A DNA stretch of 64,000 nucleotides from the IMG/VR virus record IMGVR_UViG_3300016480_000004; one strand, 5' to 3'. The position numbers and the translations under genes are program-made. Source of the DNA: a virus. Lineage: Duplodnaviria; Heunggongvirae; Uroviricota; Caudoviricetes; Crassvirales. Shown here piece after piece: positions 33,399 to 46,294 of this stretch (positions are counted from its first letter, which is position 1; every line of letters begins with the position of its first letter). The notes beneath the pieces were generated by a model that was given only the letters and a program-made list of their open reading frames with translations, did no database searches and had not been told where the DNA came from.

Positions 33399-33586
33399 AT
33401 TTCCAATAGTTTTATGTAAGTTCTTCCACCATCCTTATCATACCACAGTAATAGTATATACTTGTTATAGCTTATAACTAAGTCAAAATAAGGGTGGTAT
33501 CTAACAAAAGTCTTTATTAGTAAGATAATACCAAACAATCCTACTATAATTGATACAAATAACATACTGCCTACACTATAAATGAT

Positions 33587-33964
33587 TTAATTATCCAATA
33601 TAGTATAGGTGAAACTTACTCCACCAAGTCCTTCTACAATCCTCTTGAGATGAGCTTCAAGCCTCTGTTTTTTAGTAAGTCTCTCCCAATCTCTGGGTTT
33701 AACAAAGTAAGGAGCTTCTTTTCCTACCATGTACTCATAAGCATCCATACTAAGATTGAGAGATTGACCAGCAGGTTTACACTTTCTGGTCTTTATAGTA
33801 ATGGTCTCAGCATCTTTCTTACCCTTTTTAAGACCTTCTACTCTCATAGAGAAAGCATCATAACCTGTGCCTACTTTTTCTTCCTCAAGAGCTTTAGCCT
33901 GCTCTTGGCTATACATAATGCTGCCTTGCAACACTATGGATAGGCTTACTTTAATCTCATTCAT
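33587..33964 (-). CDS. Hypothetical protein
   Basis: ORF track. Confidence 0.45.
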   Translation of the reverse strand: MNEIKVSLSIVLQGSIMYSQEQAKALEEEKVGTGYDAFSMRVEGLKKGKKDAETITIKTRKCKPAGQSLNLSMDAYEYMVGKEAPYFVKPRDWERLTKKQRLEAHLKRIVEGLGGVSFTYTILDN

Positions 33965-34010
33965 TCTTTATACTCAAATTTGAAACCGTACTTACAAGGG
34001 ACTGATTTCA

Positions 34011-34400
34011 TTATTCATCTGAATCTTTATCACCAAGCATAGCTCCCATAAGAAGCATACTCAACATGGCTTCTGGACCTTCACCTGCTAAATTTTTAGC
34101 TGCAATATTTACAACAATCTTTTGCTGTTCTCCTGCAATAAATTTCTGCAAGTCCATAGGCAGAGTACCAAGTAGGTAAGTAATTACCATAGCCTTACTT
34201 TGGTTATCTTTTAATCTTTCCAATTCAATCAGGCAGTTATCCAATACATCTTCTGCATTAGTATCACCTGTCTCTTTACCAAGGTCAATTACACCTTCCC
34301 TCAAACTATCCATAACTTTTTTAGGAAGTGGGTTGTTAAGACCTAATTTCTCTCTCATGTTTTCTGCAAAGCTCTTAGCTTCACTCTTTTCATTTTTCAT
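34011..34400 (-). CDS. Hypothetical protein
   Basis: ORF track. Confidence 0.45.
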   Translation of the reverse strand: MKNEKSEAKSFAENMREKLGLNNPLPKKVMDSLREGVIDLGKETGDTNAEDVLDNCLIELERLKDNQSKAMVITYLLGTLPMDLQKFIAGEQQKIVVNIAAKNLAGEGPEAMLSMLLMGAMLGDKDSDE

Positions 34401-34451
34401 TGTTTTTTCTTTTAGTAAAACATTTATTTATTATCACATGACTGTACATAA

Positions 34452-34492
34452 AAAGAAAAGGCTACCAGTAATCAAACTGATAGCCTTTAAAA
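34452..34492 (-). terminator. Rho-independent terminator (minus strand) downstream of the Rsr / tRNA-like unit
   Basis: Hairpin GGCTACCAG...CTGATAGCC followed on the minus strand by TTTTCTTTTT. Confidence 0.5.
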
Positions 34493-34622
34493 GATAGAAT
34501 ATTCTACAACACCTTTGAAATTGTGTCCCTAAGGACATAAGTTGATTAAGAATCTACTCCTTTCTTACTTGCTAAATTTAATTTTCATATGAAGTAAGTG
34601 TTGTATATCACTAATCTTTGTG

Positions 34623-34780
34623 TGGAGGAAGCAGGATTCAAACCTGCAATAGAACTTATGCTACACCCTTGTGGAGTTCCTACTTACTATTATATAGGTT
34701 ATTCAAATTATAAGTTTGATGCATTAAATATATGTATAACGTTAATACATATATGCGTCTACCAATTCCGCCATTCCTCC
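34623..34780 (-). ncRNA. tRNA-like element (158 nt) with a 7-bp acceptor stem, Leu-type D-arm, T-arm, 10-bp 'anticodon' stem and ~85-nt insertion; Y-RNA-like candidate
   Basis: Minus strand: GGAGGAA-TG-GCG-GAATTGGTAGA-CGC ... GCAGG-TTTGAAT-CCTGC-TTCCTCC-A. Perfect 7-bp acceptor pairing. No canonical 5-bp/7-nt anticodon arm. Confidence 0.5.
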
Positions 34781-34940
34781 AATATTATTTATATTATTTA
34801 AAATTATTGTTTTACGAACAATAAAACGGTTACATATTCGAAGTAACACTCTATCTACGCAAGCAGATTTTCGCCACACTTTCTTAGGGTGTCTATGTAG
34901 TCTTACCTTTTCAGAGATAAATTTATCTCACCTACTGTTG

Positions 34941-35049
34941 TGAAAGTGGCAGGACTCGAACCTGCATTACACGAACCACTGGATTTCTAATCCTGTAAAG
35001 GGCAGAGTCGTGTACTCCCTTGTTGCGTCTACCATTCCGCCACACTTCC
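34941..35049 (-). ncRNA. tRNA-like element (109 nt) sharing the same D-arm and T-arm as the 34623..34780 element; Y-RNA-like candidate
   Basis: Minus strand: GGAAGTG-TG-GCG-GAATGGTAGA-CGC ... GCAGG-TTCGAGT-CCTGC-CACTTTC-A. Acceptor 6 WC + 1 GU. No canonical anticodon arm. Confidence 0.5.
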
Positions 35050-35284
35050 AAATCCAGCTTTTTCATTTTTAAGAGTTGAAAACTGGTTAAAGTATCTCTT
35101 TAAGATATGCCATAGAACATTTAACAGATTATCGTAGATAATTTAAAAGATTATTGATGTAAATCTGTAATACACTAATGGCATTATAAGTTAATGTTGT
35201 AAGAACAACTAACAGACTGTTTTTGGTAAACTATATCCATATTAGCTTGAAGTAAGTCTATTATACACTATACAACATTATATT

Positions 35285-36703
35285 TTACTGTTCCTCAAAC
35301 TTATTCTGTAAGCCTTCTAAAGCTGCAATATAAGTTAGGAAATTCTCTGACCAACCTGAAATCTCAGCAGTCCATCTTCCTCTATAATTCACTCCCTTTG
35401 TATTGGCTGATACATCACAAATATAATTGTAAGTACCAAATGGCTCAGGAAGGATAGACTTATTATAGTGGTAATCTATATCCTGTGAATCTGAGAAAAT
35501 GATGATTCTATTAAAGTGAACACCTTTAAATTTGTCTTTACACCAGTCTAAACATTGTTTAGTGAATATGCCTCCACCACCAATATTATGTCTTGTGTCC
35601 AGTATTTGCTTGAATACACCAAATCCCTTTTGAGGATATTTGATATGTTCAGATGCTTGTTTTCTTGAACTATCACTACCTGCTGTAGCCACAAGTTCAT
35701 AGTCCTCACACTGATTAATAGCTAACATAGCCATTGCGCATGCTTGGTCCATTCTACTGAACTGTGATTGACCAGAAGTAAGACTACCCATAGAACCACT
35801 GACATCTACTATAAACAAGGTTTTACCTGGGAGTTTAGGTAGATTCTTATATGATTCCAACATAGCATCTTCAATATCCCTACTGAACTCAGGGTTCATT
35901 CTTTCAGCTTTCAAAAAGTCAAGAGGCAATAGCATTGATGATTTAAGTTTTGTCAATCCCTCAACAATAACTCTTTTAGCAACATCCGATTTTCTCATGT
36001 TAGCTATATTTCTCAACATAGCCAGACCGCCAATCTTATTCTCAAAGATTAATTTAGTCCAAGTCTCTTTCCTATCTTCACCAGCAGATAATAATACTTC
36101 CCATGTTTCAGGAGGAGTAAGAGTTCTGTCAGCTACTTTCTTGAATAACTTGGTTTCATAATCATTGTTTGGCTTAGGTCTGCATAAGAACATAACATCT
36201 CTCAGCTTAATAGCTGCATTTCTGTCATATTTAGCCAACTTGTACTCATTGAAGTTATGAAAGGCATTAGCTAATCCTTTCTTAGCTTGGTTACAGATAG
36301 GCTTTTTACCGCCCTTCCAATATAATGCCAAGAAATCTGTCAGCATATCAGCCCTTGTAATAATCTTAGGCAATAGGTCAGCTACAAATAACTTATGTTC
36401 AGGATATTTACACATTTCCACTGCTATAAACAGTGGTATATGTCTCAGCTTCTGCATTAATCTTGCTTCAAGAGCAATATTATACACATCAATGGCAGGA
36501 CACAAATATATTAGCCTCTTGATTTCTTCTGCCACCTTAAGACCATCCATATATGCAACATCTTCCCAAAGAAGATTAGCTAATACTGCCCTTCTCAATA
36601 ATGCTACATTACTCTGTTTAGCTGCCAATGCACCTGAACCCCCAGCCAATCTTTCCTCATCCAACTTTGAAGTTGGTTTCACTAATGGATTTAACTTTCC
36701 CAT
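35285..36703 (-). CDS. rsr: Ro60/Rsr orthologue (TROVE domain + vWA domain with MIDAS)
   Basis: TROVE-like segments (GGLAMLRNIANM vs Ro60 TALLRNLGKM; KYDRNAAIKLRDVMFLCRPKP vs [21 protein letters not shown]) and a vWA MIDAS LFIVDVSGSMGS (Ro60 FLLAVDVSASM). Confidence 0.7.
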   Translation of the reverse strand: MGKLNPLVKPTSKLDEERLAGGSGALAAKQSNVALLRRAVLANLLWEDVAYMDGLKVAEEIKRLIYLCPAIDVYNIALEARLMQKLRHIPLFIAVEMCKYPEHKLFVADLLPKIITRADMLTDFLALYWKGGKKPICNQAKKGLANAFHNFNEYKLAKYDRNAAIKLRDVMFLCRPKPNNDYETKLFKKVADRTLTPPETWEVLLSAGEDRKETWTKLIFENKIGGLAMLRNIANMRKSDVAKRVIVEGLTKLKSSMLLPLDFLKAERMNPEFSRDIEDAMLESYKNLPKLPGKTLFIVDVSGSMGSLTSGQSQFSRMDQACAMAMLAINQCEDYELVATAGSDSSRKQASEHIKYPQKGFGVFKQILDTRHNIGGGGIFTKQCLDWCKDKFKGVHFNRIIIFSDSQDIDYHYNKSILPEPFGTYNYICDVSANTKGVNYRGRWTAEISGWSENFLTYIAALEGLQNKFEEQ

Positions 36704-36794
36704 AGAATTGTTTCTTTATTTAATTGACACTGCAAAGATATGTCAAAGGTTTCATATATACAAATATATTTCCACCTTTAACATTCTTTTTGTT

Positions 36795-37205
36795 TTATTC
36801 CTCTGTACTTGAAGCCTTATCTGCTTCTGAATTACAGAAAGCTATATAGCCCTCAACATCGAAGTTTCCTTCTTCATCCAAGAAATCTTTCAAGCCACTA
36901 TATGCTTCCTCACATACTGTGAACTGAGTTTCCTCAAATGTATCTCCTCTATACTTATGTAGGTCTATTGAACCCGATGTAAGAGGTAATTCCATTCCCC
37001 ATGATGGCATAGGATAGAACATTAAAGCATGGTTCGAGAGGTACATTACTTTGTTCTCTTCATCTTTGGCTACCCAAATGTTCTCTGGTTGTCCACCTAG
37101 CATGGTAATTCTTACTTTACCATGTGGTAGTTCACCAATAGGCTTGTCCCTTTTGATTGTTGATTTAATTAATTTCATTCTTTTCTTTTTTTTTTTATCA
37201 GACAT
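36795..37205 (-). CDS. Hypothetical protein (N-terminal K5 encoded by an A-tract; alternative start at 37178)
   Basis: ORF track. The poly-A at 37183-37199 encodes KKKKK if the upstream ATG is used. Confidence 0.4.
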   Translation of the reverse strand: MSDKKKKKRMKLIKSTIKRDKPIGELPHGKVRITMLGGQPENIWVAKDEENKVMYLSNHALMFYPMPSWGMELPLTSGSIDLHKYRGDTFEETQFTVCEEAYSGLKDFLDEEGNFDVEGYIAFCNSEADKASSTEE

Positions 37206-37262
37206 CTAAGTCTGGGTGTTTATAAATTAAGAACCTACAAATTGATTTCAAGATGTTCAGGA

Positions 37263-37472
37263 CTATTCTACTATTTCCCAATCAGTCAACCATGACTCAT
37301 CTTGTCTGTATCTCCAAAAATCTTCATACATACAATGTGCGTTAACTATCACACCATCTTCAAGTTGATAATCACCATTAGGAAGTTGAGCTATACATTC
37401 ATCAGAGCTGAAATACCTATGCCTTACTTTCTTACCTTCGGACATAGCTTTAATTGCTTCTTCTTTTGTCAT
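37263..37472 (-). CDS. Hypothetical protein
   Basis: ORF track. Confidence 0.4.
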   Translation of the reverse strand: MTKEEAIKAMSEGKKVRHRYFSSDECIAQLPNGDYQLEDGVIVNAHCMYEDFWRYRQDESWLTDWEIVE

Positions 37473-37981
37473 ATCTTTTCAAGTTTAGTTTCAACAAAAA
37501 TGGGTTCAATATCTTTCCATTCAGTGATATTATTACTATCTACTGGCTTACCCCCATTGAATGTACATATAGTTATATGTGGAATCTTGTTAGCACACAA
37601 ATTCTTTGGTATGTTACATCTGAATGCCATAGCTTTATCTGATACACCAATACCATTAACCTCTAAAGGCTGATTTAAGTTACCATGTAATACTAATGTA
37701 GTACCAAGAGTATCTTCCAGTAGAAAGTTGCTTGTTCTTTGAGACCAATGTAATAATGTGCAATGGTCTAAATACCAATCCTCAGGAAGTGTTCCCTTTA
37801 TAATATCATTATTGAAATCATAGCCATGTGCCCACAACCATTCTTTCAATTTAGTCTTACTCTCTTCTGTGAGAAATAAGCCATAGTATTCAAAATCTTC
37901 CATATAATTATTTATTAAGAATTTACCTCTTGAGCATTTCTTGTGATTTACAAGGTAGAAATGTCTGACAGCCCCTAACAC
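37469..37981 (-). CDS. 2H phosphoesterase superfamily protein (LigT-like 2',3'-cyclic phosphodiesterase / RNA ligase)
   Basis: Two H-x-T-x motifs about 70 aa apart (LDHCTLL and PHITICTF). Confidence 0.5.
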   Translation of the reverse strand: MLGAVRHFYLVNHKKCSRGKFLINNYMEDFEYYGLFLTEESKTKLKEWLWAHGYDFNNDIIKGTLPEDWYLDHCTLLHWSQRTSNFLLEDTLGTTLVLHGNLNQPLEVNGIGVSDKAMAFRCNIPKNLCANKIPHITICTFNGGKPVDSNNITEWKDIEPIFVETKLEKI

Positions 37982-39788: not shown

Positions 39789-40058
39789 TTATCTTTTTCT
39801 TTTATATTTAGTGAACTCTTTTCTTGCAATATCACCTTTCTTAAAGGTCTGCATTGTGATGCTATTGTCTGATGTAATTATTATTGACCATTCAAAAGCA
39901 TGTGTCCCAAACAGTGAAACTGTTCTACCTAAAGCGTCTGTAATTGTAGCTCTCAATGTGGAGTCACAATTCTCTCTTTTAAATTTTTTAGCCATGTGTT
40001 TATAAGTTAATTTGTTAATAATTGAAGCACATACTGGACTTGAACCAGTGACCTTCAC
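39789..40058 (-). CDS. Hypothetical protein
   Basis: ORF track. Confidence 0.4.
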   Translation of the reverse strand: MKVTGSSPVCASIINKLTYKHMAKKFKRENCDSTLRATITDALGRTVSLFGTHAFEWSIIITSDNSITMQTFKKGDIARKEFTKYKRKR

Positions 40059-40116
40059 ATAATAATTACCTTTAATTAATTATTATGTTATGCTCTAACC
40101 ACTGAGCTAATGTGCC
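40025..40116 (-). ncRNA. tRNA-like element (92 nt) with a canonical acceptor, D-arm (TAGCTCAGTGGTTAGAGCA) and T-arm, but a 10-bp AT stem with a 10-nt loop in place of the anticodon arm
   Basis: Minus strand: GGCACAT-TA-GCTC-AGTGGTTA-GAGC ... CATAATAATT/AATTATTATG stem ... ACTGG-TTCAAGT-CCAGT-ATGTGCT-T. Its 3' end overlaps the 39789..40058 CDS. Confidence 0.45.
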
Positions 40117-45608: not shown

Positions 45609-45683
45609 GCCCTCATGGTGAAATGGTTAAGACACGTCTGATTTAGGCTCAGAAGGCTGTAGGTTCGACTCCTACTGAGGGTA
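45609..45683 (+). tRNA. tRNA-Leu(TAG), class-I-like (short 5-nt variable loop, 12-nt D-loop, G37, A73)
   Basis: Acceptor GCCCTCA/TGAGGGT, anticodon arm TCTGA-TTTAGGC-TCAGA, T-arm GTAGG-TTCGACT-CCTAC. Confidence 0.5.
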
Positions 45684-45684
45684 C

Positions 45685-46215: not shown

Positions 46216-46290
46216 AGCCCCATAGTCCAATGGTCAAGAGACAGTAGATTTAAGCTCTACCCAGTGAGGGTTCGACTCCCTCTGGGGTTA
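46216..46290 (+). tRNA. tRNA-Leu(TAA), class-I-like (short variable loop, 12-nt D-loop, G37)
   Basis: Acceptor AGCCCCA/TGGGGTT, anticodon arm GTAGA-TTTAAGC-TCTAC, T-arm GAGGG-TTCGACT-CCCTC. Confidence 0.5.
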
Positions 46291-46294
46291 CTAT

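Follow-up and report, generated by a model that had tools for sequence, protein, structure and literature searches.

A Ro60-family gene followed by putative Y RNAs and tRNA-like elements in a crAss001-like phage

The sequence analysed here (the window) is a stretch of 64,000 nt from the IMG/VR record IMGVR_UViG_3300016480_000004, a crAss001-like phage (Kehishuvirus, Steigviridae). On its minus strand we identified a gene for a Ro60-family protein (the TROVE gene) and, downstream of it, ~830 nt of non-coding sequence containing three Y-RNA-like stem-loops (Y1, Y2 and Y3), two tRNA-like elements (A and B) and an orphan half-module. No terminator separates the gene from this sequence; there are five structured units and one terminator at the end. 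All RNA units lie 3–800 nt 3′ of the TROVE stop codon on the minus strand, in agreement with the placement used for YrlA RNAs (same strand, within ~4 kb of Ro60). The region 34400–36800 shows ~93% nucleotide identity to Bacteroides phage crAss001 and the PhiCrAssBcn isolates, with only ~81% of the region aligning. Our analysis indicates that the locus is probably a Ro60–Y RNA system of crAss001-like phages, in which Y1–Y3 would dock Ro60 and A and B would be stable tRNA mimics in a replaced cassette.

An initial annotation, made from the sequence alone, took the product of the open reading frame (ORF) at 35285–36703(−) to be a TROVE/Ro60 protein with a MIDAS (adhesion site dependent on metal ions), and our searches bore this out. 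Pfam TROVE (PF05731) matched aa 195–277 with an E-value of 3.8e-13 and 49.8 bits against a cutoff of 23. The matches of aa 295–407 to VWA_2 (20.5 bits) and vWA_Ro60 (18 bits) were weak and both below cutoff; the MIDAS-type D-V-S-G-S (DxSxS) is present. The closest PDB sequence match by phmmer was the Ro60 of Thermus phage phiLo (9KOP/9L5Y; E 2.8e-11, aa 109–463). Our AlphaFold2 model (pLDDT 75.9, pTM 0.55) contains an alpha/beta domain at aa 290–465, and the alignment with phiLo Ro60 runs through this domain. The best 13 Foldseek matches of the model in the PDB were all Ro60 with a probability of 1.0, among them 9KOP (6.9e-16), 1YVP, 2NVO and 9NEN. The window protein belongs to the Ro60/TROVE family and its fold matches that of solved Ro60; closure of the ring is not established, because the TM-score is only ~0.4 and the model pTM 0.55. 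An exact-protein lookup found nothing on record. Its crAss001 homologue, gp96, is annotated as a TROVE/RNA-binding protein, and the crAss001 TROVE gene has been reported to be an early gene (PMC8375218).

Analysis of the non-coding sequence revealed three stems on the leader (35282–35100) and trailer (34625–34482) sides of A and B, which the initial annotation had missed. Y1 begins 3 nt past the TROVE stop codon and consists of S2a GUUGUA, UAGUG, S1a UAUAAUAGAC, UUACUUC, a loop of ~30 nt, S1b GUCUGUUA, G UUGUUCU and S2b UACAAC, and both of its helices covary between loci. Y2 has the same layout (AUGCCAU, UAGUG, UAUUACAGAU, UUACAUC, a 25-nt loop, AAUCUGUUA, A AUGUUCU and AUGGCAU), and its ~90-nt block is almost invariant even in cr106_1, a phage of 76% identity. 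Y3, which abuts the terminator, reads AGAU, UAGUG, AUAUACAACAC, UUACUUC (34597–34591), a loop, GUGUUGUA, G AAUAUUCU and AUCU. The Y3-homologous trailers of the relatives covary, for example as GGAAGU/UAGUG/UAUAUAGUGG...CCACUAUA/ACUGUUCU/ACUUCU, and score 38–57 bits with our covariance model R1. Common to the three stems is a signature of two covarying helices (S2 outer, S1 inner) around the invariant U-R-G-U-G and U-G-U-U-C-Y, together with a 3′-flanking UUAC(U/A)UC; Y1, Y2 and Y3 thus each contain the module of two covarying helices flanking three invariant motifs. These features suggest that Y1–Y3 are Y-RNA-like RNAs and likely partners of Ro60. An alternative pairing of the 3′ half of Y1 with the 5′ half of Y2 is possible (match to model R2 at 35221–35154, 25.8 bits). 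The loop of Y3 (34500–34600, minus strand) contains AAGAAAGGAG and, 13 nt further on, an AUG that opens a 35-codon frame through the terminator. This frame is probably not coding, because a 1-nt indel in crAss001 closes it after 11 codons.

Table 1. Positions of the Ro60-family gene and of the RNA features downstream of it in the window.
Feature	Coordinates	Strand	Remarks
Ro60-family protein gene (TROVE HEAT-repeat part and putative vWA domain, DxSxS MIDAS)	35285–36703	−	472 aa; homologue of crAss001 gp96
Y1, minimal Y-RNA-like stem-loop	35188–35282 (core 35276–35196)	−	covariance model R1 77.8 bits, E 5.5e-16; in training set
Y2, second Y-RNA-like stem-loop	35100–35187 (core 35184–35107)	−	covariance model R1 64.3 bits, E 1.1e-12; in training set
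Element A, 109-nt tRNA-like RNA	34941–35049	−	Rfam tRNA 40.3 bits; own scanner
Orphan half-module GCGUAG-AUAGAGUG-UUACUUC	34840–34860	−	read from sequence; between A and B
Element B, 158-nt tRNA-like RNA	34623–34780	−	own scanner; Rfam tRNA 18.3 bits, partial
Y3, Y-RNA-like stem with a structured loop of ~78 nt	34482–34625 (core 34617–34492)	−	covariance model R1 30.6 bits, E 1.6e-4; not in training set
Intrinsic terminator closing the TROVE and non-coding RNA unit	34447–34488	−	13-bp stem 34488–34457, then T run

The hairpin and T-run terminator of the initial annotation was recovered at the end of the unit. Its stem includes 5 G-C pairs and is closed by a 6-nt loop and followed by the tail UCUUUUUAUG, and the terminator is kept in crAss001, PhiCrAssBcn4 and cr112_1.

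We aligned 24 diverse copies of the module (alignment A4), picked by a script requiring helices beside both motifs, and compared them with shuffles and slid controls. The helix cells were paired in 85%, versus 49.5% in the shuffles, and the covariation score was 0.90 versus 0.23 in the shuffles and 0.14–0.23 in the slid controls. Both sides change in 14 of the 15 pairs. An extra R:Y pair, between the R of URGUG and the Y of UGUUCY, was paired in 100% of the copies (UA 13, CG 9). G.U pairs occur throughout the helices, which indicates that the module is an RNA on the TROVE strand. Since the A4 copies had been selected by their helices, we take the performance of the covariance models as the independent evidence.

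Two covariance models were built, R1 from the module and R2 from the hairpin topology. With filters off, R1 found only Y1, Y2 and Y3 below an E-value of 0.5 in the whole 64 kb. In 56 related loci it gave 87 matches, all 87 on the TROVE strand and nearly all just downstream of TROVE. In 93 other loci, matches occurred in the TROVE-encoding ones, including many copies outside the training set, and in two others. The 7-mer TTACTTC is enriched in the window (36 copies, 15 expected), nearly always in coding sequence without the upstream UAGUG context, which was found only at the three sites downstream of TROVE. A role of the 7-mer as a genome-wide promoter or terminator was rejected on these grounds, as was its reading as an early promoter, the motif not being upstream of early genes in the window. 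A study of phage phi14:2 found no common early motif (bioRxiv 10.1101/2020.03.07.982082).

The module was also observed in other settings. In a 167-kb phage contig (L101, 600–2100, plus strand) it lies inside a tRNA array, where in two cases AGUUACUUC runs straight up to position +1 of a tRNA that looks complete. A 39-kb contig (L190, 4250–5350, minus strand) carries three module-interrupted cloverleaves, and no TROVE match to the window protein was found in the piece examined. The module may therefore be used beyond the immediate neighbourhood of Ro60.

The two tRNA-like elements described in the initial annotation, with 7-bp acceptor, D arm and T arm, were found on the minus strand by our own scanner (A at 34942–35049, B at 34624–34780), each with acceptor, D and T stems of 7, 3 and 5 bp, GG in the D loop and a T loop of the TTCGA type. 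A has the acceptor GGAAGUG/CACUUUC, a Leu-type D arm GCG.GAAUGGUAGA.CGC and a T arm GCAGG.UUCGAGU.CCUGC; the latter two arms are separated by ~57 nt of non-canonical sequence. B has the acceptor GGAGGAA/UUCCUCC, the D arm GCG.GAAUUGGUAGA.CGC and the T arm GCAGG.UUUGAAU.CCUGC, and contains several internal hairpins, including a 10-bp AU stem and UCAAA.CUUAUAA.UUUGA. With GG in the D loop and T arms GGUUCGAGUCC or GGUUUGAAUCC, both possess the tRNA-like D and T arms expected of YrlA, the tertiary contacts being only predicted. Four of the seven acceptor pairs differ between A and B (4, 6 and 7 on both sides, and pair 2 as G.U versus G-C), and each element retains 7 bp; the T stems are identical and the D arms nearly so. 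The order of the parts is that of a normal tRNA (acceptor 5′, D, insert, T, acceptor 3′) and is not permuted. The Rfam tRNA match (RF00005) of A is above the gathering threshold of 29 bits and has a 49-nt insertion replacing the inner anticodon arm; that of B covers part of the model and is below the threshold. The long inserted stems proposed in the initial annotation are not supported on their own, because single-sequence folding compared with shuffles gave z −0.96 for A (not better) and z −2.14 for B (marginal).

Neither element was called by ARAGORN in default mode. In its intron mode they were called as Ser(AGA) and Asn(AUU), the introns being placed at 32/33 and 38/39; the anticodon stem of A is then mismatched, and the pairing in B is rich in G.U. 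A and B are thus not efficiently predicted as ordinary or intron-containing tRNAs, and the latter identity was rejected in view of these forced, non-canonical introns and of the same module being found free-standing and in permuted RNAs. A search with the Rfam YrlA model (RF02553) found no match in 33500–37500 even at E ≤ 10, and the motif GNCGAAN0-1G is absent from A, B and Y1–Y3; GGCGAAAA occurs once between A and B, without the final G of this motif. The only Rfam family matched at E ≤ 10 in the window region or the crAss001 locus was tRNA, with no ribozyme, intron or other family. Between A and B, the orphan half-module has the 5′-strand signature without the partner strand, followed by an AU-rich hairpin and a U run (~34826–34801). 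It is not significant with R2 (9.2 bits, E 3.6) or with R1, and neither model gave a significant match within the two elements. The sequence GGUGUAG-CAUAAG-UUCUAUU in B may be what is left of a degenerate module; it is not significant with R2 (14.7 bits, E 0.17).

By every test run, A and B are not of the YrlA class. Of the initial proposal, a Ro60 gene followed by YrlA-class RNAs, the part that stands is the Ro60 gene with RNAs of the Y-RNA/YrlA world on the same strand; the assignment of A and B to YrlA does not, as they have no Rfam match, normal part order and no motif. The intuition was nevertheless close, because the elements in the same slot of the relatives are un-permuted equivalents of YrlA, as described below. 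The cassette of A, orphan half-module and B is unique among the loci searched: no relative was found by a 28-mer in IMG/VR, a 22-mer in JGI metagenomes, blastn against INPHARED or among 415 loci, and a degenerate T-arm/acceptor pattern search returned only ordinary bacterial tRNAs.

Some features of the tRNAs in the window touch on these elements. The tRNA-Leu genes of the window (45609–45684 and 46216–46291, plus strand) measure only 76 nt and lack a long variable arm; among these RNAs, the D arm of Leu type (GCG.GAAUUGGUAGA.CGC) is confined to the non-decoding A and B. About 3.3 kb upstream, on the TROVE strand, ARAGORN called a 93-nt tRNA-Ile(AAU) at 40024–40116(−) with normal acceptor, D and T arms, whose anticodon arm consists of an 11-bp stem (CAUAAUAAUUA/UAAUUAUUAUG) and a loop of 8 nt and which is without the Ro-stem signature. 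This RNA is kept at 87–91 nt in the relatives and is annotated as tRNA-Ile in cr112_1 and cr106_1. It is a third tRNA-like oddity on the TROVE strand.

Comparison of the intergenic regions of crAss001, cr112_1, cr106_1 and PhiCrAssBcn4 showed that a central stretch of ~470 bp is replaced by unrelated sequence in the window, with nearly identical flanks. We then collected 53 IMG/VR loci encoding the window protein at 67–96% identity. Most of them have one or two tRNA-like elements of 124–145 nt in the slot of A and B, in normal, un-permuted tRNA order; some relatives (L019, L022) have no tRNA-like element in the cassette at all. The cassette elements are complete cloverleaves interrupted by a conserved insert of 52–72 nt, and all the inserts end in the invariant GUUACUUC. 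RNAalifold on 22 of them recovered the acceptor, D, T and insert helices, with compensatory change at 20 of 27 pairs. In the first type, the insert separates nt 28 from nt 29 and so splits the anticodon stem on its 5′ strand. Of the 29 elements of this type that were tabulated, 19 have all five pairs of the split stem. The stem covaries (CG/CG, GU/AC, CU/AG, GC/GC, UG/CA), and the loop that it closes has 7 nt, including U33 and R37; in crAss001 the loop has 9 nt. The anticodons vary among nearly identical bodies (UUU, UGU, GUU, GUG, GCU, UUC), and the anticodon stem-loops are not copies of the anticodon arms of the phage's own tRNAs. The second element has a Pro-like loop (UUUGGGU) and its insert lies between the D and anticodon arms. 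The crAss001-type elements are un-permuted equivalents of YrlA, complete cloverleaves carrying the module: the RNA is that of the permuted forms in unrelated phages described below, but its chain is open at the acceptor end and a loop closes the Ro stem. The module is absent from A and B.

Genes and RNAs of other kinds were observed around the cassette in the relatives. In cr112_1 (L002, 4503–5015), an HNH endonuclease gene lies between the TROVE stop codon and the Y1 leader, and further HNH genes are scattered through the early region of relatives (e.g. L001, 1365–1853), which is consistent with frequent recombination around the cassette. In cr106_1 (L003, 523–826), a tmRNA is annotated ~2.3 kb upstream of TROVE.

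Pattern scans of IMG/VR (a 14-mer and a gapped RNA pattern) gave mostly chance hits among the matches listed. At least 15 unrelated phage loci from these scans, some of them GC-rich, encode a TROVE protein of 25–44% identity (tblastn with the window protein) and have 1–6 copies of GUUACUU[CU] within ~1.5 kb of TROVE, almost always on the same strand; two of the distant TROVE loci also bear one antisense copy. The module in these RNAs closes a permuted tRNA-like domain in YrlA order, namely S2a, GGUG(N)A, S1a, GUUACUUC, an anticodon-like hairpin, a variable loop, T arm, acceptor 3′, a loop, acceptor 5′, D arm, nt 27/28, S1b, (C)UUGUUCC and S2b. The Rfam YrlA model matched these permuted relatives with 27.8–46.5 bits (E 3e-8 to 0.07), never reaching the gathering threshold of 69. 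In the Rfam alignment GUUACUUC takes the place of GNCGAAN0-1G, and the 3′ side of the YrlA consensus carries AuGuucC. Another unrelated phage (L288, 1418–1490) has, beside TROVE and a YrlA-like RNA, a 73-nt RNA matching only both ends of the Rfam tmRNA model (65 bits): a tRNA-like domain of tmRNA type in which the middle is almost absent.

A scan of one genome per species found seven TROVE relatives, six of which were informative. In one of them (L416, 71% identical), TROVE is immediately followed by two modules of the R1 type and two of the R2 type. In two contigs from Bacteroidales metagenome-assembled genomes (MAGs; L418 and L419, TROVE 61–63% identical), TROVE is followed by a YrlA-like RNA (30–33 bits) and then by RtcB. 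This RNA carries a variant of the signature, GCCGUAG...[UA]U[CA]CUUC...GCUUGUUGCC.

The RNAs of this family resemble YrlA in several respects. YrlA is a permuted RNA with a 5′ Ro-binding motif GNCGAAN0-1G, followed by T arm, closed acceptor stem-loop, D arm and 3′ end (PMC4201824); its structure has been reported (bioRxiv 10.1101/312249). Like YrlA, they are encoded beside a Ro60 orthologue on the same strand, they combine a terminal, putatively Ro-binding stem with a tRNA-like domain of conserved D and T arms, and the AuGuucC of the YrlA consensus 3′ strand matches the UGUUCY of the window locus. They differ in having UUACUUC where YrlA has GNCGAAN0-1G. The crAss001-type elements are moreover un-permuted, with the acceptor end open and the Ro stem loop-closed, and many have a full anticodon stem-loop, whereas A and B have no Ro stem altogether. 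With the YrlA model, the relatives reached at most 46.5 bits, and the crAss001 locus, like the window region, had no match. Compared with ordinary tRNAs, A and B share the 7-bp acceptor, the GG D loop and the UUCGA-type T loop, but they have no in-register anticodon arm of 5 bp and 7 nt and are 109 and 158 nt long.

Y1–Y3 are similar to YrlB of Salmonella and M. smegmatis and to Yrn2 of D. radiodurans, which have a long stem of the 5′ and 3′ ends, a conserved internal loop and a variable distal loop (PMC4201824), and in both cases several such RNAs per locus are co-transcribed next to Ro60. The differences are the conserved signature of Y1–Y3, the tandem array directly after the stop codon in the phage, and the binding of Ro60, which is only putative for Y1–Y3. 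The closest solved protein, phiLo Ro60, is also a phage Ro60 with adjacent Y-like RNAs; it binds two of them, Yrl1 and Yrl2, and forms complexes with host PNPase (PMC12135203). The phiLo RNAs, however, lie upstream of the gene and were identified via the CGAA motif, no tRNA-like domain or variable cassette has been described for them, and the protein is only ~21% identical to that of the window. The rsr-yrlA-rtcB RNA repair operon (Salmonella, PMC7790460) has its classical order of TROVE, YrlA-like RNA and RtcB in L418 and L419, where the protein is similar to that of the phage and the RNA has the signature variant. In contrast, the phage locus has no RtcB but a 2H phosphoesterase-like ORF ~770 nt upstream, and it has three to five RNA units versus one in the bacterial contigs.

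Taken as a Ro60–Y RNA system, the locus would work as follows. An early gene would give rise to a Ro60-type ring protein. The signature stem, with its URGUG/UGUUCY bulge, would dock the phage Ro60, in the role that the bulged helix with GGUCCGA or GNCGAA has in animal or bacterial Y RNAs, and the unpaired UUAC(U/A)UC would exit the inner helix toward a variable effector loop. The distal loop or the tRNA mimic would recruit a second factor, with PNPase as the precedent, known from Deinococcus and Salmonella (PMC4201824) and from phiLo (PMC12135203). The Ro60 ribonucleoprotein (RNP) would influence the RNA metabolism of host or phage within 10 minutes of the start of infection. The cassette between Y2 and Y3 is hypervariable: it holds module-bearing cloverleaves in crAss001 and most relatives and has been swapped wholesale for A, the orphan half-module and B in the window. 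A and B would most likely be stable tRNA-mimic RNAs that RNase P and a nuclease processing tRNA 3′ ends excise from the early transcript, and their excision would also free the flanking Y RNAs. A tRNA made together with Y RNAs has a precedent in D. radiodurans (Yrn2-tRNA-Asp-Yrn1; PMC4201824).

Several observations weigh against this Ro60–Y RNA interpretation. We infer RNA binding and effector recruitment from homology and gene neighbourhood. The window signature is without the CGAA motif that defines the bacterial and phiLo Y RNAs. The selection of the A4 copies by script inflates the paired fraction, leaving the covariation and the out-of-sample model matches unaffected; the R1 E-values, including those in Table 1, are rough, and Y1 and Y2 were in the R1 training set. 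One module-positive locus (L140) showed no TROVE in the piece examined. L418 and L419 match only Rfam YrlA and neither R1 nor R2, and three of the six informative relatives (L417, L420 and L421; 60–65% identical) had no YrlA or module match within the flanks examined. The fold of A is not better than that of shuffles, and, because no relatives exist in the collections searched, the structures of A and B rest on one sequence each and on their comparison with each other.

A and B could also be processing punctuation, that is, tRNA-shaped signals at which host RNase P and a 3′ nuclease would free the TROVE mRNA and the Y RNAs, with no role in Ro60 function. Their intact 7-bp acceptor, D and T arms are the features that RNase P needs, they are without the Ro-stem signature, and L019 and L022 indicate that such elements are dispensable. 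In D. radiodurans, Yrn2, tRNA-Asp and Yrn1 come from a single precursor (PMC4201824). However, the cassette elements of the relatives mostly carry the Ro-stem module inside, which would be needless for cleavage signals, as would the large idiosyncratic inserts of A and B. We regard punctuation as rather unlikely to be the whole explanation; it overlaps with the Ro60–Y RNA interpretation and does not exclude it. There is, in our estimate, only a small chance that A and B are decaying, non-functional leftovers of recombination, derived from tRNA mimics that once bore the module or from captured tRNA genes. Decay would fit a cassette that is unique to the window, the orphan half-module between A and B, the possible degenerate module in B and the score of B under the Rfam tRNA threshold. 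Drift is not expected, however, to leave perfect 7-bp acceptor stems in both elements while four of the seven pairs differ, and the identical T stems, the nearly identical D arms with G18G19 and the T-loop consensus have all been retained.

It is very improbable that A, B and the interrupted cloverleaves are decoding tRNAs whose introns are removed by cleavage and religation (by the 2H phosphoesterase and host RtcB). Removal of the insert in the relatives does leave a perfect cloverleaf with a 5-bp anticodon stem, a 7-nt loop, U33 and R37, a 2H/CPDase-like ORF lies upstream on the same strand, bacterial rsr adjoins rtcB, and the intron mode of ARAGORN calls both A and B. Yet the module is also free-standing (Y1–Y3 and many loci) and part of permuted RNAs in which there is nothing to splice. 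Nearly identical bodies carry different anticodons (UUU, GUG, GCU) without matching identity elements, the crAss001 element has its 9-nt loop, the introns called in A and B sit at non-canonical positions with poor pairing, and the phage has 24 tRNAs of its own already. Searches at E ≤ 10 found neither a group I intron nor a ribozyme family, and the inserts of 27–82 nt are too short for group I introns. We likewise give very little credence to UAGUG...UUACUUC acting as DNA, as a hairpin promoter of the virion RNA polymerase, a transposon end or a homing-endonuclease site. In support of a DNA element, the RNA polymerase that crAss-like phages inject has no known early promoters (bioRxiv 10.1101/2020.03.07.982082). 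In L101 the motif lies immediately next to position +1 of a tRNA, and HNH endonuclease genes are scattered in related loci. TTAC and TCAA resemble IS608 cleavage sites; IS608-like ends were dropped in view of the G.U pairs and the fusion to tRNA domains. Against a DNA element, the motif is not upstream of TROVE or other early genes, and the only three significant copies in the window are all downstream of TROVE. On the opposite strand, the G.U pairs of the helices would turn into A.C mismatches. The fusion of the module to tRNA-like domains in two circular permutations is sensible only for a folded RNA, and the permuted forms match the Rfam YrlA model.

A broader proposal extends the Ro60–Y RNA interpretation. 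The URGUG/UGUUCY/UUACUUC stem would be a widespread and uncurated class of Y RNA, in phages and Bacteroidales MAG contigs, with the module joined to a tRNA mimic in either permutation. The anticodon swaps of the native-order elements (Lys UUU, Thr UGU, Asn GUU, His GUG, Ser GCU, Glu UUC, Pro UGG) and the fast turnover of the cassette, of which A and B would be one outcome, would fit Ro60-tethered tRNA decoys or baits that counter host anticodon nucleases, or other defences directed at tRNAs, during the first minutes after infection. We offer this as a speculation that is more probably wrong than right.

Other features near the locus concern RNA processing. As the initial annotation had noted, a 2H phosphoesterase gene and many tRNAs (~25 by its count) are present; ARAGORN in default mode counts 24 tRNAs in the window. 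The ORF at 37469–37981(−), 170 aa, lies on the same strand ~770 nt upstream of TROVE, with two small ORFs between. It matches Pfam tRNA_lig_CPD with 24 bits (cutoff 23) and has two HxT motifs (HCT and HIT), so that by sequence it appears to be a 2H phosphoesterase, a CPDase or LigT-like enzyme. The same 2H-like neighbour was also found in L295. Together with the Ro60 gene, this ORF suggests a theme of RNA-end processing that echoes bacterial rsr-rtcB. Between the upstream ORF and the TROVE start codon, at 36733–36790(−), there is a long AU-rich hairpin (AAGAAUGUUAAAGG...CCUUUGACAUAUCUU), which surfaced only through meaningless sub-threshold matches to miRNA families and might have a part in regulation or processing.

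Phage Ro60 genes with adjacent Y-like RNAs are already known from mycobacteriophages, CcrColossus, phage G and phiLo. In the literature searched, we found no paper that links crAss phages with Y RNAs. The crAss001 locus, the signature without CGAA, the tandem array of Y stems, the YrlA equivalents that are un-permuted and bear an anticodon, and the turnover of the cassette were neither described there nor captured by Rfam thresholds, and the stretch of ~900 nt after the crAss001 TROVE gene is unannotated in the records examined. crAss001 is the reference cultured member of the most abundant group of human gut phages. If our interpretation is true, the phage Ro60 gains concrete RNA partners that can be tested directly, and the CGAA-less Ro-stem signature, which current models miss, would extend the annotation of Y RNAs to many phages and Bacteroidales. 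The two arrangements would be a natural pair of circular permutations of one RNP RNA, which bears on the origin of YrlA from tRNA. It has been proposed that Ro60 orthologues of commensals trigger autoimmunity against Ro60. The Ro60 of an abundant gut phage, 60–65% identical to Ro60 proteins encoded in Bacteroidales MAG contigs, may bear on this autoimmunity as well.

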